The notes below the pieces were generated by a model, which had not been told where the DNA came from, made no database searches, and saw only the letters and a program-made list of their open reading frames with translations. The position numbers and the translations under genes are program-made. Shown here in pieces: positions 14,723-29,498 of a stretch of DNA of 64,000 bases. Each line of letters begins with the position of its first letter. Position 1 is the first letter of the stretch. Source of the DNA: an uncultured archaeon (lineage in GTDB: Archaea; Asgardarchaeota; Heimdallarchaeia; Heimdallarchaeales; Heimdallarchaeaceae); the NCBI GenBank assembly GCA_964549075.1, contig CAZJUB010000010.1:1575-65574 (forward strand), written 5' to 3'.

Positions 14723-15550
14723 TTGCATCACAAGATGATTAGTGAACAAATAAATAATCTTAACCAGTACTTTAAAGATAAAAAAGTGGTTATAGCATTT
14801 TCAGGAGGTATCGATAGTACAGTACTCCTTGAATTTGCTTTGCAATCTGCAAAAGAAGTACTAGCTGTCACCGTTAAATCTAGTCTTGTACCTATGGATG
14901 AGATGGATTTTGCGGTTCGATATCTTCAATCAAGAGATATTCCATATAGATTACTTCAAGTTAATCCGTTGGATCATCCTAATGTTGCAAAAAATGATAT
15001 TAAAAGATGTTATTATTGCAAAAGATTGATTTTTGAATCAATTATTGATGAGACAAAGGAATTTAAACCCGATATCATTGTAGAAGGTTCTAATATTTCT
15101 GACTTATCCGATTATCGACCTGGTATGGAAGCTGTTAAAGAATTATCTATAAAGAGCCCATTTCTAGAATTGAATATTTCAAAGAAGGAAATAAGAGGTC
15201 TATCCAAAATTATGAGTTTGGAAATTTCTGAAAAACCTGCTACAACATGTCTTGCTACAAGAATTCCTTATGGTCAAGAAATAACAGAAGAGAGGTTAAA
15301 GAAAATCGAATTAGCAGAAAGTATCATCAAAGAGATATTACCAATATCTGTTTTACGAGTAAGGGACCACAAAGAGATTGCCAGAATTGAAGTACTTGAG
15401 GAAGATATGATGAAAATTATGAAATCTGATCATCGGAACTTAATTAGAGAAAAACTAAAACAGTTGGATTTTTCATATATTACCTTAGATTTGGGTGGAT
15501 ATAAGCAAGGTTCAATGAATATTAACATAGAAGGTGTAAAAGATGACTGA
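14723..15550 (+). CDS. larE: PP-loop ATP-utilizing sulfur transferase LarE (NPN cofactor biosynthesis)
   Basis: PP-loop AFSGGIDST, a CYYCK cysteine motif, a size of about 270 aa, and a position upstream of larC and larB. The true start may be the ATG at 14735. Confidence 0.75.
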   Translation: MHHKMISEQINNLNQYFKDKKVVIAFSGGIDSTVLLEFALQSAKEVLAVTVKSSLVPMDEMDFAVRYLQSRDIPYRLLQVNPLDHPNVAKNDIKRCYYCKRLIFESIIDETKEFKPDIIVEGSNISDLSDYRPGMEAVKELSIKSPFLELNISKKEIRGLSKIMSLEISEKPATTCLATRIPYGQEITEERLKKIELAESIIKEILPISVLRVRDHKEIARIEVLEEDMMKIMKSDHRNLIREKLKQLDFSYITLDLGGYKQGSMNINIEGVKDD

Positions 15551-16778
15551 AGTTATAATATTAGATCCACGAAATGCTGGAAGTTCTGGAGATATGTTTC
15601 TTTCTCTTTTCATAGATTTATTTGATGACAAAAATACAATTGAAATCTTAGTAGAAAAAATTAATGAAGTATTTAAATCACAAATGACTGTACAACCACT
15701 AAAAATTAATAAAAACGGGATTCATTCAACTGAATTAGTAATTGATATTAAAAATGATATAGAGAAAAAACATGCATCTGATCTTTTGAGTTATTTTAAA
15801 TTAATTCTCTCAAAACTTGAGATATCAGACAAAGCAGCTCAGCTAGCAGAAAAAACTCTAATCACATTATTTGAAGCAGAAGCTAAGGTCCATGGTGAAG
15901 AAATTGAAAAACTACATTTACATGAAACTGCTAGCTTAGATACAATTTTAGATATTTTAGGGACTGTATTATTGATAGATAGAAACAATGCAATAGATAA
16001 ACAATTTCTAGGATTACCAGTAAATGTAGGAAGTGGATTTGTTACCTTTTCACATGGTAAAATGGCAGTTCCACCACCAGCAGTAAACGAGATTTTAAGA
16101 TCAAAGAATTATCCATTTTTCAGTGATGAAATAAAAGGAGAGATGTTAACTCCAACTGGAGCAGCGATTTTAACAAATTTAGTTTCAAAAACAATTCATT
16201 CATTACCTCCAATCGAGGTAAAGAAGATTGCTTATGGAGCTGGAAGCAAAGATCTAGGAAATAGACCAAATGTAATCAGAGCTATGCAAGGACAAGTAAG
16301 GGAAGAAAGTTCAAAGAACTATTTAACGATGCTTGAAACACATCTAGATGATGTTACAGGAGAAGTATTAGGAGGGATGATGAAAAAACTCTTTGAATAC
16401 CAAGCTCTTGATGTGTCTTATTATCCTATATTCATGAAAAAGAATCGTCCAGCATATGTACTTAGAGTCATTTGTGAAGAAGATAACTCTTCAAAACTTG
16501 CTCAATTAATAATGAAAGATTTAGGAACATTAGGAGTAAGAGAGAGTAGATTTGCAAGATATGAACTAGAAAGAAGAATCATCACTAAAGAATTTTTCAT
16601 TGAAAAACAGAAGTTTACATGCAAATTTAAAGAGAGACTCTTCAAAGGAGAAGTAATAGGAGTAAAACCAGAGTTTAAAGATTTACTTACTATACATGAA
16701 GAGACTAAAATACCTCTAGCTGAATTAGAAAATAGACTTATTAATTTTTATCACATGGGAGATGAATTTTGTGAATAG
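15543..16778 (+). CDS. larC: Nickel insertion protein LarC (DUF111 family)
   Basis: N-terminal DPRNAGSSGDMFLS motif typical of DUF111/LarC. About 410 aa. Overlaps larE by 8 nt. Confidence 0.8.
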   Translation: MTEVIILDPRNAGSSGDMFLSLFIDLFDDKNTIEILVEKINEVFKSQMTVQPLKINKNGIHSTELVIDIKNDIEKKHASDLLSYFKLILSKLEISDKAAQLAEKTLITLFEAEAKVHGEEIEKLHLHETASLDTILDILGTVLLIDRNNAIDKQFLGLPVNVGSGFVTFSHGKMAVPPPAVNEILRSKNYPFFSDEIKGEMLTPTGAAILTNLVSKTIHSLPPIEVKKIAYGAGSKDLGNRPNVIRAMQGQVREESSKNYLTMLETHLDDVTGEVLGGMMKKLFEYQALDVSYYPIFMKKNRPAYVLRVICEEDNSSKLAQLIMKDLGTLGVRESRFARYELERRIITKEFFIEKQKFTCKFKERLFKGEVIGVKPEFKDLLTIHEETKIPLAELENRLINFYHMGDEFCE

Positions 16779-17547
16779 AAAAGAGATTCTAAGTAAACTA
16801 GTTAATAATGAAATTTCAATAGAAGAAGCTGATAGAACCTTATCTTCTACTCAAATTGAAGAGGTTAGTGATATTGCTAATTATGATATTTTTCGAGAGA
16901 GAAGAACAGGCATTCCTGAGATAATTTATGCTGAAAATAAGAGCTCTGAGATGGTAGTTGAAATTGCAAAAAAAGTACTCATAAAAAAACAAATAATACT
17001 GATATCTAGAACTAACGCTGAGCATATTGAAGCTATAAAATCTTTAGAAGGAGACTTTGAAATTGAGTATGGTTATAACAATCATTTCTGTCGAATTAGA
17101 AGAAACGGTTTTTCTATTGAAAAAGATGGTGGAAAAATAGGGATAATTACTGCAGGTACCTCTGACATTCCCGTCGCAAAGGAAGCTAAAGCTATAGCTG
17201 AAATGATGGGGTGTGAAGTATATCTTATCAACGATGTTGGGGTAGCTGGTATTCATAGACTCTTTCAACCTTTAAAGGAACTATTAGAAAAAGAAGTCGA
17301 TGTTCTTATTGTTGCTGCAGGTATGGAAGGAGCTTTACCTACAGTTGTTGCAGGTTTAGTTGATATTCCTGTAATAGGTTTACCAATTTCCACTGGTTAT
17401 GGTTATGGAGGTAAAGGTCAAACTGCATTAATGAGTATGTTACAAACTTGTTCATTGGGTTTAGCAGTTGTAAATATAGATGCAGGAATTAGTGCAGGAG
17501 CAATAGCTGCTAAAATTGCGAATAGAAGATGCAAACAAAAAGATTAA
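16762..17547 (+). CDS. larB: LarB, PurE-like carboxylase/hydrolase making pyridinium-3,5-biscarboxylic acid mononucleotide
   Basis: AIR-carboxylase-like core GIITAGTSDIPVAKEA...VIVAAGMEGALPTVVAG. Overlaps larC by 17 nt. Confidence 0.8.
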   Translation: MNFVNRKEILSKLVNNEISIEEADRTLSSTQIEEVSDIANYDIFRERRTGIPEIIYAENKSSEMVVEIAKKVLIKKQIILISRTNAEHIEAIKSLEGDFEIEYGYNNHFCRIRRNGFSIEKDGGKIGIITAGTSDIPVAKEAKAIAEMMGCEVYLINDVGVAGIHRLFQPLKELLEKEVDVLIVAAGMEGALPTVVAGLVDIPVIGLPISTGYGYGGKGQTALMSMLQTCSLGLAVVNIDAGISAGAIAAKIANRRCKQKD

Positions 17548-21630: not shown

Positions 21631-22047
21631 TTAGTATGAATTACGTTTTCTATTAAATCTACGATGACTTTCGTGTTCTGCTAAGGAGATATTGTTTTCA
21701 GAATTGATATCTTCTAGCTTTTCTTCAGAATCTTCAATTATTCCTTGTCTTCCTAAAGATAATCTAATATTTTTTTTGTACAAAATAGTTTTAGCTTTCA
21801 GAAATTGATATGTCTCATCTGGTTGTAATTTTTCTATTTGTTCATTCCAAGCTGAGAAATATAGAACACCAGTATCATCTCCAATTAGAACATCCATTAC
21901 TTTATGCTCTTCACCAGAATTTCTGTTTGTAACTGTTCTTTCTTCTCCTTTTTCCAGTACTTTTGCTACTAGATTAATATCTCGGACATTAGGTTCGATT
22001 TCACTAACTTTCAAATAACTTACTTCTTCTTCACTCAATTTGGTCAC
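21631..22047 (-). CDS. Single-OB-fold ssDNA-binding protein (NABP/SOSS-B-like SSB)
   Basis: The OB-fold pattern INLVAKVLEKGEERTV...HKVMDVLIGDDTGVLYFSAWNEQIEKLQPDETY..LKAKT..YKKNIRLSLG parallels human SSB1-type and archaeal short SSBs. Confidence 0.65.
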   Translation of the reverse strand: MTKLSEEEVSYLKVSEIEPNVRDINLVAKVLEKGEERTVTNRNSGEEHKVMDVLIGDDTGVLYFSAWNEQIEKLQPDETYQFLKAKTILYKKNIRLSLGRQGIIEDSEEKLEDINSENNISLAEHESHRRFNRKRNSY

Positions 22048-22244
22048 TTCAGTTGAGTAATTCTTTGCTTCAAAACGACTTCAATTATTGCAAGAAAGCA
22101 TTTAAGCTGAACTTGAAAATAGCTGAACTTCCATTTTGTATGCTAACTTACTCCTCTATTTTGCATATAAAAAGGATATGTTTTGACAGAAAAGCTAAAA
22201 GAGACTGAAGCTAACAATTAAAAAGTGTAAAATTATGTTAAATC

Positions 22245-23177
22245 ATGAGATATGGGTACTATGTTCGTACTGAATTAAATTATCCTGAAATAAGAGATTT
22301 AACTCAAAGAGTTGAGGGAATGGGATTTGAATCTGCTCATGTAAACGATCATCTCATTGGATTTGATGAAAAACAAGATAAAAAGGAGCCTTATTTAGAA
22401 GCTCTAATGCTAATGAGTGCTTTAGCTACAGAAACAAAGAAGATTAAATTAGGTCATATTGTTCTTTGCAACTCTTTTCGAAATCCTGCGCATTTAGCGA
22501 AAATGATCAGTACTTTAGATAATATTTCAAATGGAAGAGTACTTCTTTGGTTAGGTGCAGGCTGGTATGAGGAAGAGTATAAAGCATATTCTTATCCTTT
22601 TCCGAGTCCTCAACAAAGAGTAGAGGAATTAGAGGAATCATTGATAATTTACAAGAAAATGTTTACTGAAGAAATAACTAATTTTGAAGGCAAATTCTGG
22701 AAATTAGAAAAAAATAGAAATTATCCAAAACCAGTACAAAAACCACATCCTCAAATCGTCTTAGGAACTTCAGGAAAAAGAATGACAGAGATAGCTTGTA
22801 GAGAAGCAGATGGTATAAACCTTCCTTACATTAAACCTAATGAATTAGAAGGAAAAATCAGCATCATAAGAAGTCATCTTAAAAAATATAAAAGAGATCC
22901 AAGTAAATTTGAAATCTCGTATTTTGGTGCAATTAATCTCGTAAAAGATCAAGAGGAGATAGATAAGCTTGTTCAAATAGCAATAGATAGAGCTCCAGAA
23001 GATAAAAAACCCACAAAAGAAGAAGTCTTAGATAATAGCTTCATCGGTTTTCCAGAAGATATAAAAGAGAAGATAAACTCACTAGAAAACAAAGGTATTG
23101 ATAAAATCGTAATCGCTATTAGGAAATCTGAAAACATTGAAGATCCATTAAAGCTATTTGTAGATAAAGTGATGTAG
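22245..23177 (+). CDS. Luciferase-like monooxygenase (LLM) class flavin/F420-dependent oxidoreductase
   Basis: LLM-type TIM-barrel pattern: GFESAHVNDHL, LGHIVLCNSFRNPAHLAKMISTLDNISNGRVLLWLGAGW and PHPQIVLGTSG. Confidence 0.75.
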   Translation: MRYGYYVRTELNYPEIRDLTQRVEGMGFESAHVNDHLIGFDEKQDKKEPYLEALMLMSALATETKKIKLGHIVLCNSFRNPAHLAKMISTLDNISNGRVLLWLGAGWYEEEYKAYSYPFPSPQQRVEELEESLIIYKKMFTEEITNFEGKFWKLEKNRNYPKPVQKPHPQIVLGTSGKRMTEIACREADGINLPYIKPNELEGKISIIRSHLKKYKRDPSKFEISYFGAINLVKDQEEIDKLVQIAIDRAPEDKKPTKEEVLDNSFIGFPEDIKEKINSLENKGIDKIVIAIRKSENIEDPLKLFVDKVM

Positions 23178-23182
23178 GTGAT

Positions 23183-23428
23183 ATGATGTATTCAAGTATA
23201 TTTCAAAGATTGAGAAATTTAATTATTGAAGTTGTAGATGTAAAAAGATATCTTATTACTATTAACACATACTTTGAAGAAGATCTGGATTTAACCAAAG
23301 ATGATTTAAGCAAACTTCGTAAAATGATAGAAAATGAATTTGATATGTCTCTTCCTGATAATATCTTTAAAGAATTTAATACTGTTGGAGAGATAGTTGG
23401 ATTGATAGAAGCTGAACTAGGAAGATAA
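23183..23428 (+). CDS. Acyl-carrier-protein-like small protein lacking the canonical DSL serine
   Basis: At 81 aa, FEEDLDLTKDDLSKLRKMIENEFDMSLPDNIFKEFNTVGEIVGLIE aligns to the ACP helix II-IV pattern. The D-S-L position reads T-K-D. It starts 5 nt after the LLM gene stop. Confidence 0.45.
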   Translation: MMYSSIFQRLRNLIIEVVDVKRYLITINTYFEEDLDLTKDDLSKLRKMIENEFDMSLPDNIFKEFNTVGEIVGLIEAELGR

Positions 23429-23440
23429 AGAAAAGAAGAA

Positions 23441-24724
23441 CTAGAGGATTTTTTCTCCTTCTTCTAAACTTAACATTGTAAATCCACTAATCATTTTGGG
23501 ATAGAAATCAGTAGCTTTTTGAGGCATTCTCTCTCCATTCTTAGCAACTTTGAGAACTTGTTCAGCACTTGTTGGATTAAGTAGAAATGCAACCTGATAA
23601 GTACCTTTATCGACTTCCTCTACAGCTTCATTCCACCATCGTTCATAGAAGATATCATCATTTATACGTAAATCCCCTAATTCCATTATACCGCTGAAGA
23701 TCATATCTCTAAGTATAACAACATCTAAAGCTTTGAAATCATCACTTACATCGCCAACATAACGATTTATTGATGATGGATCTTTCAGAATTAGAGAAAC
23801 AGCTCGTCCATCTTGATAAAAAACAAAAGCGTGTTTATCCCTATTGTTTTCCAAAAATTTTGGAATGTCAGTCTTGAGAACTTCATCCATATCAAAGAAT
23901 ATTTTTAGTTCATTCAATTTAGCGTCTGAAACTTTTACTTTAGTTAAACAACGATGTGTAGCAAGAATAACAAGACCTTCGTCCTCAATAGGGACAAGGT
24001 AGGTCATTCTAAATTCAGGAGCATCGTCCGGAGTCCAAGAACCTGCAGCTTGTCTCCTCATATCTCTATATGTAACCGCTGTCTCATACCTGTGATGACC
24101 GTCTGCAACAACTAATTGTTCATCTTGAAAAACATCTTGTACGATTTTAATTTGAGCTTTATCAGATATTTTCCAAATACGATTTATCACCCCTAGATCA
24201 TCTTTTGCATTTATTAATGGAGGTTCTTTACTGATTTCATCAAAAAGATTTATTGTTTTCTTTTCTGGATCTGAATAAAGTATAAAACCAGTTTCAAGAG
24301 TATGTCTGGTTGTCTTAAGCATGTTTAGTCTGTCAATCTTTGGACCTCTGTGTGTTTTTTCATGAGGTAAGACTATTTTTTCTTCGAAAGGATGTAACCG
24401 TAAAGCACCTATGAAACCTTTTCTTATATACTTCTTTCCAAAAAGTTCATATTCTTGATAATAAACATAAATTCCTGGAACTTCATCTTTCTCAAGAATA
24501 CCCTCTTGCAACCATTTAACTAATCGTTGTCTTGAAATTTCGTAGCGATTTTCTTCAATTGGAAGTGTTAATCTGCAATAGTTATATTCGGATTCTGCAT
24601 AATATTTCTTTTGCATATCCGCGTCTATCTTGTCATAAGGCTGAACTATTAATTTCTCAATGTCTCCAGCTTTTTCTGTATATCTTATAGCTTTAAATGG
24701 TCTGACATCTACCATTGTAATCAA
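23441..24724 (-). CDS. DUF1015 family protein
   Basis: N-terminal VRPFKAIRYT and central VADGHHRYETA are hallmark DUF1015 blocks. Confidence 0.75.
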   Translation of the reverse strand: MITMVDVRPFKAIRYTEKAGDIEKLIVQPYDKIDADMQKKYYAESEYNYCRLTLPIEENRYEISRQRLVKWLQEGILEKDEVPGIYVYYQEYELFGKKYIRKGFIGALRLHPFEEKIVLPHEKTHRGPKIDRLNMLKTTRHTLETGFILYSDPEKKTINLFDEISKEPPLINAKDDLGVINRIWKISDKAQIKIVQDVFQDEQLVVADGHHRYETAVTYRDMRRQAAGSWTPDDAPEFRMTYLVPIEDEGLVILATHRCLTKVKVSDAKLNELKIFFDMDEVLKTDIPKFLENNRDKHAFVFYQDGRAVSLILKDPSSINRYVGDVSDDFKALDVVILRDMIFSGIMELGDLRINDDIFYERWWNEAVEEVDKGTYQVAFLLNPTSAEQVLKVAKNGERMPQKATDFYPKMISGFTMLSLEEGEKIL

Positions 24725-24909
24725 ATTAGCACTACGAAGAGTCTATTTTAATTTTTTTGTTAGAAGATGATAGATCTCGCAAAAAACTCAAATTATTTAG
24801 TAAAAAATGATATACCATTTTAAAAGACATATCGTTTTTATGATATATCGGTAGTAAGATTTAACAAATTCAACTACTTGTACTATAAAAAGAATAGTAG
24901 GAGATTAAA

Positions 24910-26367
24910 TTGTTTGGAAATCAAAAAAAAGGTAAACCTCAACATTGTGGAAAAAAAATGCAAAGATTGTATATTAGAAAAGGTACAGCAGAAAGGAGAT
25001 GGATTGCAGTTGGGTATTATTGTAATGTATGTAGAAAAATGATAAAAGATTCCGATTTAGCACTATATAGACGTTCAGAAGATCTTATGACTAGACCAGA
25101 ATTAGTACCTTTCTTATCAAATCCACAAAAAATTATTTTAGATATTGGAGAAAAGTTAACTAAAGTAGGTTTCGGTGGAGAAAGAGAACCAAGGTTAATT
25201 CTAGATTCACTTTTATATTATGATAAAAACAACAAATCCTTTATTCAAAATTCTGATTACATTGAGACATCCAAGACAGTAAAATCACAGAAAACCCTAT
25301 TTTGTGATGATATTAGTCCCAGTCTAAAACTTGATGTAGTAGACCTTTTTCTTACACGTGTTTTTGAGATTTTAGGAGTCAATCCTAAGGATAAATCAAT
25401 CATGATAATTGAAAAAAACTACAAAAACAATTATGTAGAAGCCTTATATGGTAAAAAAAAGGAAATTAACGAAACAACACTTCCTGAAGATATTAAAGAG
25501 AAGTTAAAAGAAAAAAGAAAAGTTGAATATCTTAATTATGATAAATATGTAAAATTTCCCAGAAGAGAATTAAGTTCTCTTCTTTTTGATAATTTTGAAG
25601 CTTCTCAGATCTATTTTTCGAATGGAGAGTTACTATCTTTATACGCGAATGATATGATCACTGGATTGGTGGTAAACATTGGAACAAGTTCTACTAGAAT
25701 TATTCCTGTATTTCAAGGATTCATTATAACTCATGCAATTAATGTAAGAGATATTGGTACAGCACAAGTCTTTGAGAAAATTTTAGAATACTTAGATGTT
25801 CAAAATAATTTTAAAAATGTATCCCAGCACACCAAATATTTAATTCAAAAACGGTTGCGTTTATCTTCAGAGGAATTTTGTTATATATCTTTGGATCCAA
25901 CATCTGAGGAAACTAAATGGTATGAAAATGAGAAATTGAAAAAATATATTCATCTTTTTGAGAATGAATATGTAGAAATGGATCAAATCAGATATTTAGC
26001 AACAGAGATTTTGTTTGAGAAAGAAGAATTAAGTATTACAAAGAAGAAAGGAACACTAACAGATGCAATTATTGAAACTATTCAAAAATGTGATGTAGAT
26101 TTAACTAAATCACTGTATAGCAATATTCTAGTGACGGGAGGAGGTTCGTTTTATGAGGGATTAGCAGAGAGACTTCTTTTTGAATTAAAAGAGAAAGTGC
26201 AAAATCGTGTGGAAGTTAGTGTTAATACCAAACCTAATCGATTGATTTCTTCTTGGATAGGTGGATCAATTCTTTCTATTTTACCGGATTTTGAAAATAG
26301 TAACCTTTGGGTAACTAGAGAGGAATATAACGAAAAAGGTGTTTCAGCTATAGATAGATGTATTTAA
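24910..26367 (+). CDS. Actin-family protein (divergent actin/Arp-like) with a Cys/His-containing N-terminal extension
   Basis: Actin-fold motifs: ILDIGEKLTKVGFGGEREPR (phosphate 1), GLVVNIGTSSTRIIPVFQGF (phosphate 2), ILVTGGGSFYEGLAERL (adenosine) and SWIGGSILS...WVTREEYNEKG (actin C-terminus). The start is TTG with GGAG 7 nt upstream. The N-terminus carries H12, C13, C38 and C41. Confidence 0.85.
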   Translation: MFGNQKKGKPQHCGKKMQRLYIRKGTAERRWIAVGYYCNVCRKMIKDSDLALYRRSEDLMTRPELVPFLSNPQKIILDIGEKLTKVGFGGEREPRLILDSLLYYDKNNKSFIQNSDYIETSKTVKSQKTLFCDDISPSLKLDVVDLFLTRVFEILGVNPKDKSIMIIEKNYKNNYVEALYGKKKEINETTLPEDIKEKLKEKRKVEYLNYDKYVKFPRRELSSLLFDNFEASQIYFSNGELLSLYANDMITGLVVNIGTSSTRIIPVFQGFIITHAINVRDIGTAQVFEKILEYLDVQNNFKNVSQHTKYLIQKRLRLSSEEFCYISLDPTSEETKWYENEKLKKYIHLFENEYVEMDQIRYLATEILFEKEELSITKKKGTLTDAIIETIQKCDVDLTKSLYSNILVTGGGSFYEGLAERLLFELKEKVQNRVEVSVNTKPNRLISSWIGGSILSILPDFENSNLWVTREEYNEKGVSAIDRCI

Positions 26368-26374
26368 GTTTGGT

Positions 26375-27430
26375 TTATTTCAAACCCCAAATTTCTCTCG
26401 TTTTTTGTTCCAATTCTTCAATTCCTTTCATAGAAGGTTTCTTCTTACCTTCTTCTATCTCATGAATTTGTTTTAGTACATAGTTGTTTAATGGAGTTTC
26501 TATTCCAAGTTTTTCTCCTTGTTCAACTATGTACCCTGTAAGAAAATCTCCTTCTGATTTCCTTCCACTTTCAATTGATTGTAAACTTGATGATCTGAGA
26601 TGCTTGTATTTTCTTCCAATTATTTTGACAATTGTATCTTTAAAGAATAATCTAGGGCAAAAGAAAGCATTTAACATCCTTTTATTTATAGTTAAAGAAT
26701 GCAAACTCAAACCATTCATTTTTTGAAGCTTTATTTTTTTTGCATCAGCAATTTTCACTCCTTCAGTAAGAACTGTTAAGAAAGCAATTCTAGTCATTTT
26801 TCTTTTCAGCATATCACCTAGAGTTATTCCACCTATGATTCCAAAAGAAGTAACGGCTATATTTATCAAAAGTTTCGACATTTTTTCATTAATAATATTA
26901 TCAGACCAGAATGCAGGTACAATATTTGATAGTTTTTCTATTACTAAATCATCATCTTTGCCTTTCTTACCATTTAATCTACCATAATATATCTCTCCTT
27001 GAGATGTTTTCTTAGATTCAGCTGGTCCTTTTTTAGAAGCTCCAAAGCTTACAACACAACCAACTAGGTTTTTCTTATCATACATTTCAATTAATTTCTC
27101 TTCATACATTCCATTTGTCACAGTAACAATAGTAAAATCTTTACCAAGTTTTGGTTTTATTCGCTCAAGAGCGTCTTCTATATGAGTCAGCTTTGTGACC
27201 ATAAATATAAAATCCAAATCTTTAGGGAGATCTTCAATTTTAAGAACTGGAGTGAGATTTTTCTTTACAATGTAATTCCCACTAACTCCTGTTACTTTCA
27301 AACCTCTTGATTGAACTATGTTTAGTACTTCTTGATGTTTACATACAACATAAAGAGGGAAATCATTCAAAGCTAAATCTGCAGCAACAATAGTACCTAT
27401 TGCACCTAAACCTACTAAAGCAGCTTTCAT
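26375..27430 (-). CDS. 2-dehydropantoate 2-reductase (ketopantoate reductase, ApbA/PanE) family protein
   Basis: N-terminal Rossmann motif MKAALVGLGAIGT plus an ApbA-like middle and C-terminal domain. The specific substrate is not assignable. Confidence 0.6.
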   Translation of the reverse strand: MKAALVGLGAIGTIVAADLALNDFPLYVVCKHQEVLNIVQSRGLKVTGVSGNYIVKKNLTPVLKIEDLPKDLDFIFMVTKLTHIEDALERIKPKLGKDFTIVTVTNGMYEEKLIEMYDKKNLVGCVVSFGASKKGPAESKKTSQGEIYYGRLNGKKGKDDDLVIEKLSNIVPAFWSDNIINEKMSKLLINIAVTSFGIIGGITLGDMLKRKMTRIAFLTVLTEGVKIADAKKIKLQKMNGLSLHSLTINKRMLNAFFCPRLFFKDTIVKIIGRKYKHLRSSSLQSIESGRKSEGDFLTGYIVEQGEKLGIETPLNNYVLKQIHEIEEGKKKPSMKGIEELEQKTREIWGLK

Positions 27431-27488
27431 AAAATAAAAGAAAATAAGTTTTATTAAAATCTTTCAGTAAAAAACAGAAAAAAGAAGC

Positions 27489-28421
27489 TTAAGCTTCTTT
27501 TAGTGCTTCTATCACTCTTTCTGCAGCTTGAATACTTGCTCTGTAATTTCCTTCAGCTGTTTGAGCGCCTATATGTGGACTGATAATTACATGTTCATGC
27601 CTTAAAAGTGGATTTGTTTCATCTGGGGGTTCCTTTTCAAAAACATCTGTACAATAATAACCTAATTGACCAGATACTAAAGCATCATAAGCAGCTTGTT
27701 CATCGACTAATCCTCCACGAGCGCAATTAATCAGAACAGTTCCTTTTTTCATTTCGCTTATCTTTTTTGCATCAATAATGTTTTTTGTTTCATCAGTCAA
27801 AGGTACATGGAGACTAATGTAATCAGAATTTGCAACAACTTCATCCAGAGATGTCTTCATATCAACAACAGGATTCTCAGGAACATAAGCATCATAACCT
27901 ATAACATTCATTCCTAAAGCTTTACATTTAACTGCTAAAGCTGTCCCTATCCTTCCTGTCCCTATCAAACCAAGTGTTTTACCATCAATTTCCTTTGAAA
28001 ATAATTCTTTCTTTGCAGTTTTGAATGTAGAAGGATTAGCTTTAATTTGACAGGTACCTTTAACAACATCTCTAGTTGAGGCTAAAATCATTGTTAATGC
28101 GAGTTCAGCGACTGAATTTGTGGTAGCGGCTGGAGTATTGACTACTTTTATCCCTCTTTGCATTGTCGTTTCAAGATCTATATTATCTAAACCAACACCA
28201 GCTCTACCGATAACCTTGAGATTTACAGCTTTTTCCAATAGTAAACCTCGAACTTTAGTTGCTGATCTTACTATCATTGCATCATAGTCTCCAATGATTT
28301 GAGGTAACTCTTCCTTTGGAATGTCCCAAGCAACGTTTACTTCTAGACCTGCATCTTCTAATACTTCAACTGCTTTCTCATTTAATTTATCAGTTAGTAT
28401 AACCTTTGCCATTGTTCTCAC
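27489..28421 (-). CDS. D-isomer-specific 2-hydroxyacid dehydrogenase (short D-3-phosphoglycerate dehydrogenase-like)
   Basis: NAD motif GLIGTGRIG and catalytic region CARGGLVDE...SPHIGAQT. There is no ACT domain. It abuts the aminotransferase gene with a 0-nt gap. Confidence 0.8.
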   Translation of the reverse strand: MRTMAKVILTDKLNEKAVEVLEDAGLEVNVAWDIPKEELPQIIGDYDAMIVRSATKVRGLLLEKAVNLKVIGRAGVGLDNIDLETTMQRGIKVVNTPAATTNSVAELALTMILASTRDVVKGTCQIKANPSTFKTAKKELFSKEIDGKTLGLIGTGRIGTALAVKCKALGMNVIGYDAYVPENPVVDMKTSLDEVVANSDYISLHVPLTDETKNIIDAKKISEMKKGTVLINCARGGLVDEQAAYDALVSGQLGYYCTDVFEKEPPDETNPLLRHEHVIISPHIGAQTAEGNYRASIQAAERVIEALKEA

Positions 28422-29498
28422 CTATAACTCCCAAATTTCTTCAATTGCTCCAAGGAGCTCTTTCAACTCTTCTAAAGTATGATCACCCATATGACCAATT
28501 CTGAAGGTTAAACCTTTCAATTTACCATAGCCATCTGCGATGACAAACCCTTTTTCAGCTAAACCTTTATTCAATTCTCCCACATTTTTCTCCAATTTAT
28601 TTTCAACAGTTGTAACAGTTACAGACCTGTAACCATCTTCAGCAAACAAACCAAAACCATGTTTTAGTGCCCATTCATGAGTATAATTGGCCATAGCTTT
28701 ATGTCTATTATAAATGCCTTCAGCTCCTTCCTCTAACATCTCTTTGAGCTTATAATCGAAGGCATATAGTAACGAAATGTTTGGTGTAGAAGGTGTCTGT
28801 TTCTTTTTGAAATAATATTCTAAAATATGTTCGAGGCTGACATAAGTTCCCTTATTAGGGACTACTTTAGCTCTGTCATAAGCAGCTTGAGATATAATAG
28901 CTACAGCAAGACCTGGTGGTAATGCAAAACATTTTTGGGAGGATGCAAAAACTAAATCAGTTCCCCATTCGTCTGGTAATAGCACATCTCCACCCATAGA
29001 AGATACAGCGTCAACAGTTAAGAGAGTTTCAGGATAATTTTTCAAGAGATTACCGATAGCTTCAAGGTTTGCTCTTACACCAGTACTTGTCTCATTATAA
29101 CAAACTGTTACTACATCATATTCAGATTCTTCAAGTTTTTCTTTAATCAGTTCTGGTTTGATAGCTTTACCCCACTCTACTTCTAGTTTATCTGTTTGGA
29201 TTCCGCTATCAACAAGAGTGTCGTACATTCTTGAAGAGAAAGAGCCATTTACACATGCAAGAGCTTTCTTACCTGGTCTGATAAGATTTCTAGCTATAAC
29301 ATCCATGAAGATAGTACCAGAAGCAGTATGTACCATGATATGTTGCTCAGTTTTGAAATACTTGCGTAATTGTGTTAATACACTATCATATAATTCTGTA
29401 AAATCATTACTTCGATGACCAATAAGGGGTTTTGCTTGTTGTTTTAGAACATCTTCTTTAACCTCAGTTGGTCCTGGTATCCATAATCTTTTGTGCAT
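28422..29498 (-). CDS. Class V aminotransferase (serine-glyoxylate / archaeal phosphoserine aminotransferase type)
   Basis: WIPGPTEV N-terminus, VDAVSS, and PLP-lysine context SSQKCFALPPGL. Confidence 0.8.
   Translation of the reverse strand: MHKRLWIPGPTEVKEDVLKQQAKPLIGHRSNDFTELYDSVLTQLRKYFKTEQHIMVHTASGTIFMDVIARNLIRPGKKALACVNGSFSSRMYDTLVDSGIQTDKLEVEWGKAIKPELIKEKLEESEYDVVTVCYNETSTGVRANLEAIGNLLKNYPETLLTVDAVSSMGGDVLLPDEWGTDLVFASSQKCFALPPGLAVAIISQAAYDRAKVVPNKGTYVSLEHILEYYFKKKQTPSTPNISLLYAFDYKLKEMLEEGAEGIYNRHKAMANYTHEWALKHGFGLFAEDGYRSVTVTTVENKLEKNVGELNKGLAEKGFVIADGYGKLKGLTFRIGHMGDHTLEELKELLGAIEEIWEL

Follow-up and report, generated by a model that had tools for sequence, protein, structure and literature searches.

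To our knowledge, actin-related proteins (Arps, or ARPs) that act on DNA or chromatin are regarded as a eukaryotic invention, and those of Asgard archaea are known only as leaves of phylogenetic trees, with no function assigned. Five "asgardactin" clades have been described (PMC8850707), and in Ca. L. ossiferum three homologs that are not lokiactins were placed among the ARPs (PMC9834061, Fig. 5d). We analyzed a stretch of 64,000 nucleotides (the window) from contig CAZJUB010000010.1 of an uncultured archaeon of the Heimdallarchaeaceae, in which an earlier model-made annotation (the original prediction) had pointed to a gene for a divergent, eukaryote-like actin-family protein with an N-terminal Cys/His extension. 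We find that this protein (the zinc-ribbon Arp) combines a degenerate actin fold with an N-terminal module of predicted zinc-ribbon topology, and that its gene is preceded by conserved palindromic boxes.

The zinc-ribbon Arp has in common with lokiactin ("asgardactin 01") and eukaryotic actin the fold, D11, G13, K18, G156, E214, the GG of the adenosine loop, the WIGGSIL motif and the C-terminal helix, and lokiactins, at about 30% identity, are its nearest relatives outside its own family by raw similarity; unlike lokiactin and actin, it has the D-loop, the hydrophobic plug, Q137, H161, and D154 replaced, and it carries a 41-residue insertion and the N-terminal ribbon. Like the Asgard ARPs as a class, it is an Asgard-encoded, divergent actin paralog with no annotation beyond "actin family protein"; in the searchable papers, however, we found no clade described with a zinc-ribbon fusion, an insertion in subdomain 1 or a conserved operator, and the zinc-ribbon Arp may yet belong to one of asgardactins 02-05. 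The eukaryotic nuclear Arps (Arp4, Arp5, and Arp8 of INO80/SWR1/NuA4) resemble it in having an actin fold that does not polymerize (a property predicted here for the archaeal protein), insertions, and an N-terminal extension, which in Arp8 contacts DNA. Chromatin-associated Arps would be a functional analogy if the ribbon binds DNA; unlike in nuclear Arps, the element that may tether the protein to DNA would be a zinc ribbon instead of a disordered basic extension, and no HSA-helix partner was identified. Type II partition systems (ParM/ParR/parC) likewise have an actin-fold gene immediately downstream of iterated DNA boxes, but the present locus is chromosomal and encodes a degenerate ATPase site, and its adaptor would be part of the actin-fold polypeptide instead of a protein of its own. 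The ribbon signature itself is shared with standalone ribbon proteins and with a second fusion family (zinc-ribbon-X, see below), the latter also having the PRHCGKAM knuckle and upstream boxes; unlike the zinc-ribbon Arp, these relatives are either standalone (37-218 aa) or fused to a non-actin domain, and most have four cysteines.

In the literature outside subscription journals and supplements, we found no description of a zinc-ribbon/actin fusion, of the degenerate site, of the insertion or of the boxes, and no mention of the orthologs' NCBI accessions in the searchable part. The original prediction likewise knew of no actin-related protein fused to a zinc-binding module; it had also considered that the protein might fall into an already described Arp-like clade with the same extension, and among searchable papers we found none.

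The N-terminal extension

The extension comprises 72 aa, and the only Cys and His within its first 65 residues are H12, C13, C38, and C41. None of the four varies among the 22 sequences whose N-terminus was called, nor do P10, K15, M17, Y21, I22, R23, K24, G25, T26, R29, W31, and G35 (consensus: KPKHCGKxMxRLYIRKGTxKRKWIxVGYYCxxC); the module of the window protein includes a basic hairpin, YIRKGTxxRRW. Residues 9-46 form the most conserved segment of the whole protein, with a majority fraction of 0.77 versus 0.36-0.71 in the other segments, and a mean identity to the window protein of 69% versus 20-59%. The segment is also strongly basic: residues 8-46 have an isoelectric point (pI) of 10.3 versus 5.5 for the actin core, and the ribbon pI ranges from 9.1 to 10.5 across orthologs.

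In each of the 18 genome loci that cover the 5′ end, the reading frame ahead of the Met17 codon encodes KPKHCG(K/E/Q)xM, and ribbon codons vary synonymously among loci (CAT/CAC, TGT/TGC). In most loci an upstream ATG lies 12-16 codons before Met17, and P0002, P0005, and the window gene use a TTG or GTG. For two orthologs (P0022 and P0023), gene callers placed the start at Met17. The loci of these two (L011, 2249-2303; L022, 2653-2707) still encode KSKPKHCG in frame, but the stretch from the preceding stop to the Met17-equivalent contains no ATG, GTG or TTG, so that they have either a non-canonical start codon or a real N-terminal truncation lacking H12 and C13. The original prediction had named two findings that would overturn it, a start at Met17 or later and a lack of conservation of the Cys/His residues in orthologs; the upstream peptide in 18 of 18 loci, with its synonymous variation, and the invariance of the four residues speak against both, and the extension is real and, on this conservation, translated.

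A model of the protein was made with AlphaFold2 (AF2), which the original prediction had suggested for the N-terminal segment. It places strands at residues 11-12, 15-16, 18-24, 30-37, and 44-46, followed by a helix at 47-60, with H12 and C13 in the turn of a first knuckle and C38 and C41 in that of a second. By this predicted secondary structure, the topology is that of a zinc ribbon, with two knuckles around a β-hairpin and a third strand. The "zinc knuckle" of the original prediction is better described as a zinc ribbon, given these strands and the homology to CxxC...CxxC mini-proteins (see below). Database searches with the N-terminus returned little: a Pfam scan gave nothing at threshold (only DUF6487, at E=0.055), a profile compared with PDB sequences gave chance-level matches (best E=0.062), and Foldseek with the isolated N-terminal model gave a best E of 1 in PDB and 0.3 in BFVD, with MqsA, serine integrase, and RPA12 near the top of the list, all non-significant.

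We next consider which residues would bind the metal. A search of 1.84 billion representative proteins with a profile of the extension retrieved, in addition to the Arp family, small proteins (37-218 aa) that share its signature, (C/P)xx(C)..M.R.YIR...(K/R)W.P.GYYCxxC. The standalone ribbon proteins are unannotated (e.g., P0094, P0106, P0111, P0117, and P0122), and most of them have four cysteines, with a classical CxxC first knuckle (CTKC, CIKC, CENC, CPIC, CTDC, etc.). In the alignment, P10 of the window protein occupies the position of the first Cys and C13 that of the second. A Pro at the first-Cys position always comes with a His (five sequences) or a Cys (three sequences) directly ahead of the second Cys (8 of 8 cases): PxHC occurs in the Arp family, P0091, P0101, P0105, and P0116, and PxCC in P0092, P0099, and P0125; in the four-Cys proteins the same position is variable. 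Because Pro covaries with His or Cys in this way, there is good evidence for H12 as the fourth ligand, and the ribbon likely forms a Cys3His site, as read from the alignment. This largely resolves the doubt about metal binding that the original prediction had raised, since only three Cys and one His are available. Other candidate ligands were rejected: M17 is equally conserved in the four-Cys homologs and is therefore a core residue rather than a ligand, and C484 and C394 are the equivalents of actin C374 and C285.

Ten standalone ribbon proteins were scanned against Pfam with none at threshold; a scan of viral contigs with the ribbon profile found no relative, and a word-indexed search with alignment A3 no new relatives. 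Two standalone four-Cys proteins, P0094 and P0122 (loci L004-L006 and L028-L029), are encoded in ORFan-rich regions, one of which is on a 163-kb contig. Nearby genes encode an archaeal histone, DUF6573, a DnaA-like ATPase, an exonuclease, and D5-like regulators, and the regions look like a large archaeal mobile element or virus.

Palindromic boxes upstream of the gene

The original prediction overlooked the upstream sequence, which we rate as the best clue to function. Each ortholog is preceded by two to five 12-bp boxes (21 of 21 loci), with the consensus ATG(A/G)TATA(C/T)CAT, which is a 12-bp palindrome (see Table 1 for the three boxes of the window; the loci with boxes upstream of the Arp gene include L001-L026, L032, L033, and L047). 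Box 1 is near-invariant although the proteins are only about 40% identical; its counts over the 21 loci are A21 T16 G21 A21 T21 A21 T21 A21 C18 C21 A18 T20. Three boxes with start-to-start spacings of 18 (17 in the window) and 16 nt are found in 19 of the 21 loci, the first spacing being 17 nt in the window and L032 and 18 nt in most other loci. In L015 and L019 the boxes are present in a different arrangement, and the neighboring genes differ as well (a membrane phosphatase-like protein upstream and pgk downstream); since the boxes are retained next to these other neighbors, they belong to the Arp gene and not to the DUF1015 gene found upstream in the window.

In all fetched loci, the boxes lie only upstream of the Arp gene. 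Exact ATGATATAYC occurs in the 64-kb window only at 24807 and 24840, and one-mismatch matches elsewhere are at chance level; with exact copies restricted to the Arp locus, a general promoter motif was rejected. A metagenome scan for box 1 plus box 2 gave 45 matches, among which only L047 is an Arp locus, the rest being tandem repeats or chance matches.

An actin fold with a degenerate nucleotide site

The core of the protein belongs to the actin family. Pfam Actin (PF00022) matches residues 73-483 with 198.3 bits against a cut-off of 27 (E=2.1e-58), which, with orthologs in Heimdallarchaeota metagenome-assembled genomes (MAGs), supports the original assignment to a divergent eukaryote-like actin family of an Asgard archaeon. 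The best matches among PDB sequences are "HC1 actin" (3e-45), actin (1.5e-39), and Arp1 (5e-39), with strong alignment confined to residues 215-483 and about equal scores for actin and Arp1. Profiles of prokaryotic actins stay under their cut-offs (crenactin, 12.6 versus 630; MreB, 10.9 versus 293; MamK, 14.2 versus 400), as does Pfam MreB_Mbl (15.7 versus 27). The AF2 model, made with 24 orthologs as input, has a mean predicted local distance difference test score (pLDDT) of 85.7 and a predicted template modeling score (pTM) of 0.83; Foldseek aligns it to actins at E 2e-30, with a target-normalized template modeling score of 0.83-0.87 over about 415 columns. Model and Foldseek together support a four-subdomain actin fold.

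For the comparison of residues, we aligned the protein with seven lokiactins and rabbit actin (the latter for numbering only). Identity of the window protein is 24% with rabbit actin and 32% with lokiactin; between lokiactin and rabbit actin it is 58%. The barbed-end half (subdomains 1 and 3) is better preserved than the pointed-end half (subdomains 2 and 4; Table 1), and the barbed-end groove is partly retained (Y143, A144, G168, I341, I345, L346, and F352). An actin-like C-terminus, with the WIGGSIL motif and the C-terminal helix, is present in the alignment, bearing out its likeness to eukaryotic actin noted in the original prediction. The K/E-rich insertion noted there is also real and conserved in orthologs: its 41 residues (173-213) fall within subdomain 1, where they separate the counterparts of actin N111 and P112 (the 109-115 loop), are specific to the family, include four residues invariant in orthologs (G181, L191, P192, and L199), and contain helices at 176-179, 183-187, and 193-201 in the AF2 model.

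The original prediction held that all nucleotide-binding motifs of the actin fold were recognizable. The positions can indeed be aligned, but the phosphate loops and catalytic residues are degenerate. Actin residues D11, G13, K18, G156, R210, E214, G301, G302, and Y306 are kept, whereas all nine canonical nucleotide or catalytic residues S14, G15, Q137, D154, D157, G158, H161, K213, and K336 are changed, several of them varying within the family: S14 and G158 are variable, G15 is S/K/C/Y/N, Q137 is G (followed by an invariant E), D154 is N/G/S/H, D157 is A/S/T, H161 is an invariant R, K213 is S, and K336 is L. The D-loop is replaced and shortened, and the hydrophobic plug FQPSFIGMESAGI has become the charged FEKEELTKKKGTL. 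Judged from these residues, the protein is Arp-like and has probably lost both ATP hydrolysis and F-actin-type polymerization.

Outside the window, a separate clade of Asgard actin-like proteins of 370-375 aa (P0036-P0049, from Promethearchaeota and Heimdallarchaeota) carries the annotations "actin, cytoplasmic 2" or "actin family protein"; in the neighbor-joining (NJ) tree it forms a monophyletic group with 100% support. The subset of it in the residue alignment has R at H161, S at G158, and F at G15, which makes it another group of ARPs with a predicted variant ATPase site.

Family and phylogeny

A search of 5.8 billion proteins yielded 24 full-length relatives of 471-493 aa with 40-82% identity, the next tier being the 378-aa Asgard actins (lokiactins) at about 30%. 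The named orthologs are all "actin family protein" from Candidatus Heimdallarchaeota or Heimdallarchaeaceae MAGs, and among the GTDB species representatives, about 18 genomes proved to carry the gene (by title, 16 Heimdallarchaeota, one Promethearchaeati, and one Thorarchaeota). Since the Heimdallarchaeaceae also encode a normal 378-aa actin (P0034), the zinc-ribbon Arp is an extra paralog.

The phylogenetic placement proposed in the original prediction was carried out with NJ trees that include few named Arps. The family is monophyletic at 100%, and the seven lokiactins form their own 100% clade, with the zinc-ribbon Arp outside it. Together with one further protein, P0160 (locus L080, 350-1852), the family forms a clade of its own in 97-98% of bootstraps. 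No supported affiliation was seen with any named eukaryotic Arp subfamily among the few sampled, and the deep placement is unstable, the attachment point shifting once P0160 is added. P0160, a slower-evolving protein of 500 aa, has the same ribbon. Its full-length identity to the window protein is 34%, and over its C-terminal 270 residues it matches a Heimdall lokiactin at 44% identity; its insertion in subdomain 1 is even larger than that of the window protein, and it also lacks G13, G15, G156, and G158. P0160 suggests that the zinc-ribbon Arp clade derived from a lokiactin-like ancestor. The family is an Arp-like clade restricted to Heimdallarchaeia, and not a lokiactin.

Other genes with the same ribbon and boxes

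Three proteins (P0091, P0127, and P0130; loci L007 219-1550, L031 2601-3944, and L079 2673-3989) carry the ribbon in the form MPAKxLPRHCGKAMxRLYIRKGT...GYYCxxC, fused to a domain of about 380 aa (domain X) that matches nothing in Pfam or PDB. P0091 was cut short at the Met17-equivalent by the gene caller, and in archaeal loci a GyrI-like gene follows zinc-ribbon-X. Homologs of X occur in other forms as well: alone in bacteria, duplicated, behind Cass2/GyrI-like effector-binding domains, and behind extracytoplasmic function (ECF) sigma factors. Over its residues 64-446, P0127 can be aligned at 36% identity (E=9e-71) with part of an Aminicenantes "RNA polymerase sigma factor" (residues 196-565); therefore, the ribbon sits in the slot of a promoter-recognizing domain.

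Ahead of the zinc-ribbon-X genes lie two to four boxes, of the types ATGGTATACCAT, ATGATATTCCAT or ATGGTATATCAT, with a spacing of about 32/53/32 common to L007 and L079, and ahead of the P0160 gene three boxes, ATGGTATA(C/T)(C/T)AT, at 173, 239, and 271 in L080. The box sequence is thus kept, in three arrangements, ahead of every gene with this ribbon type: the main family, P0160, and zinc-ribbon-X.

Gene features and neighborhood

The open reading frame and TTG start given in the original prediction were confirmed exactly (485 aa; the TAA stop is at 26365-26367), and the public gene call on the same contig, P0001, is an identical 485-aa protein (100% identity). An in-frame TAG at 24898-24900 precedes the reading frame, and between it and the ATG of Met17 at 24958 the TTG at 24910 is the sole ATG, GTG or TTG. 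Table 1 lists the features of the locus.

Table 1. Features of the zinc-ribbon Arp gene and its upstream region, in window coordinates.
Feature	Position	Strand	Basis or remark
Box 1, ATGATATACCAT, 12-bp near-palindrome	24807..24818		Nearly invariant in 21 orthologous loci
Box 2, AAGACATATCGT, degenerate copy	24824..24835		AnGATATAYCnT in orthologs
Box 3, ATGATATATCGG, palindromic core GATATATC	24840..24851		16 nt start-to-start from box 2
Conserved TTTAACAAAT, possible TATA-like promoter element	24860..24869	+	T/A positions invariant in four aligned upstream regions
GGAG, Shine-Dalgarno-like motif	24900..24903	+	Sequence; 6 nt ahead of the TTG start
Complete gene, zinc-ribbon-fused Arp	24910..26367	+	485 aa, TTG start, TAA stop
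Predicted zinc-ribbon module, residues 9-46	24934..25047	+	Conservation, AF2 secondary structure, CxxC..CxxC homologs
Putative ligand H12	24943-24945		
Putative ligand C13	24946-24948		
Putative ligand C38	25021-25023		
Putative ligand C41	25030-25032		
Helix (residues 47-60) and linker (61-72), ribbon to actin fold	25048..25125	+	AF2 helix; conservation low
Actin-fold core, residues 73-485	25126..26364	+	Pfam Actin, residues 73-483; Foldseek versus actins
41-residue charged insertion, residues 173-213	25426..25548	+	Alignment to actin and lokiactin
Subdomain 1			Identity to actin 30%, to lokiactin 35%
Subdomain 2			Identity to actin 9%, to lokiactin 12%
Subdomain 3			Identity to actin 28%, to lokiactin 42%
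Subdomain 4			Identity to actin 17%, to lokiactin 22%

The upstream neighbor, the DUF1015 gene, lies on the minus strand, as do the genes downstream, which encode an ApbA/PanE-like reductase, a 2-hydroxyacid dehydrogenase, and a class-V aminotransferase; because the flanking genes run in the opposite direction, the Arp gene is monocistronic. The gene order Ssb-like OB-fold protein, luciferase-like oxidoreductase, 80-aa protein resembling acyl carrier proteins (PP-binding-like), DUF1015, Arp, ApbA/PanE, 2-Hacid_dh, Aminotran_5 (window 21631-29498; L001-L003) is kept though protein identity is only about 41-44%. Just upstream of the DUF1015 start, on the other strand, a conserved stretch, CTATTTTAATTTTTTTGTTAGAAGATG (24742-24768), has many invariant positions across four aligned upstream regions (window, L032, L008, and L002) and is probably the promoter or leader of DUF1015. 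An Rfam scan of the window, which has a G+C content of 31.8%, found no RNA family. Genes farther away in the window are metabolic (LarE/LarC/LarB-like, SDR, subtilase, and CitMHS transporters), including a cluster at 14723-17547 of LarE-like (QueC/PP-loop), LarC (Ni_insertion), and LarB-like (AIRC) genes, which suggests synthesis of the nickel-pincer cofactor.

Possible roles of the protein

Tentatively, we favor the reading that the zinc-ribbon Arp of Heimdallarchaeia is a degenerate actin fold whose ribbon binds zinc and the palindromic boxes, and that it serves in tethering or autoregulation. The ribbon would hold one zinc ion through H12, C13, C38, and C41, and would be a module for binding DNA or the transcription machinery that recognizes the boxes; such recognition would anchor the actin-fold domain at the protein's own promoter, with autoregulation and possibly a small regulon as the result. 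The protein would neither hydrolyze ATP nor build F-actin-like filaments, acting instead as a structural or regulatory Arp, and its actin-fold domain would be the partner-binding or sensing part, for example toward lokiactin or actin-binding proteins via the retained barbed-end groove. DNA binding or autoregulation by the ribbon is the inference we prefer, as suggested by the sequence comparisons. A more specific form of this proposal, in which the ribbon would be a sequence-specific DNA-binding domain for ATG(A/G)TATA(C/T)CAT and the protein, arisen by fusion of a ribbon to a lokiactin-derived pseudo-ATPase, would be a chromatin- or promoter-bound counterpart of the nuclear Arps or a regulator coupling expression to actin state, seems unlikely to us as a whole.

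Several points weigh against the favored reading. The fetched loci and one metagenome scan revealed no further box-bearing genes and gave no hint of a regulon; boxes are missing from the loci of the more distant standalone ribbon proteins; and by Foldseek and profiles the ribbon has no significant match to any characterized zinc ribbon or DNA-binding domain. Given the 81% identity between the P0127 and P0160 ribbons, boxes and 5′ coding end may have been transferred as one unit, and the two families then count less as independent evidence; in addition, a separate transcription factor could bind the boxes. Loss of the ATPase is deduced from sequence alone, and some Arps bind nucleotide through variant loops. 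Much of this would suit a cytoskeletal-accessory Arp, whose ribbon would be a structural or protein-interaction module (docked on the actin core, for example, or recruiting a partner) and which would cap, nucleate or otherwise regulate lokiactin filaments by way of its conserved barbed-end half, with the boxes being the operator of an unrelated factor. Zinc ribbons often mediate protein contacts, the box-free standalone loci and the possible co-inheritance of ribbon and boxes as one 5′ segment fit this role, and so do the partly kept groove residues and the identity of about 30-42% of subdomains 1 and 3 to actin or lokiactin (9-22% for subdomains 2 and 4; Table 1), as in Arp2/3-type proteins. 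We regard such a role as possible, if doubtful: it leaves unexplained why boxes are retained in three arrangements ahead of all genes with this ribbon type and why the ribbon stands in place of a sigma-factor domain in the X family, and it does not account for the strongly basic ribbon of the orthologs.

Two further explanations keep the actin fold as a polymer. If the locus were a fused ParM/ParR-like system, the actin fold would polymerize and the ribbon would be an adaptor on parC-like boxes, moving or anchoring a chromosomal locus; iterated boxes directly upstream of an actin-like gene and a basic, putatively nucleic-acid-binding domain in the same protein speak for it. We consider it very unlikely because the active site is degenerate and the context chromosomal: the phosphate loops and catalytic residues vary within the family, the elements for longitudinal and lateral contacts are lost, the neighborhood is a conserved housekeeping one and not a mobile element, and the identical box type precedes the non-actin zinc-ribbon-X gene. 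Hardly any weight is left for an ordinary filament-forming actin, that is, a lokiactin paralog started at Met17 whose extension is irrelevant or mis-annotated. Gene callers did begin P0022 and P0023 there, and L011 and L022 have no canonical start codon farther upstream, but the upstream peptide is conserved in these two loci as in the rest of the 18, the ribbon is the most conserved segment, a start at Met17 would halve its predicted β-structure, and the protein, only 24% identical to actin, has lost the polymerization elements.

Implications

Two by-products of the analysis are the definition of a so far unannotated family of zinc-ribbon mini-proteins and the finding that the ribbon module can be truncated at Met17 by gene callers. 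The Arp clade has a sister architecture (ribbon plus X) whose bacterial homologs are sigma-factor fusions, and it offers a testable case, in which a predicted zinc ribbon, a degenerate actin fold, and an insertion come with a candidate DNA target 60-100 bp upstream. If the ribbon binds no boxes, the protein would still be a lineage-specific Arp, ATPase-dead by its sequence, and a testable regulator of lokiactin; if the ribbon does bind them, actin-fold proteins would have been recruited to DNA-linked roles before eukaryogenesis.

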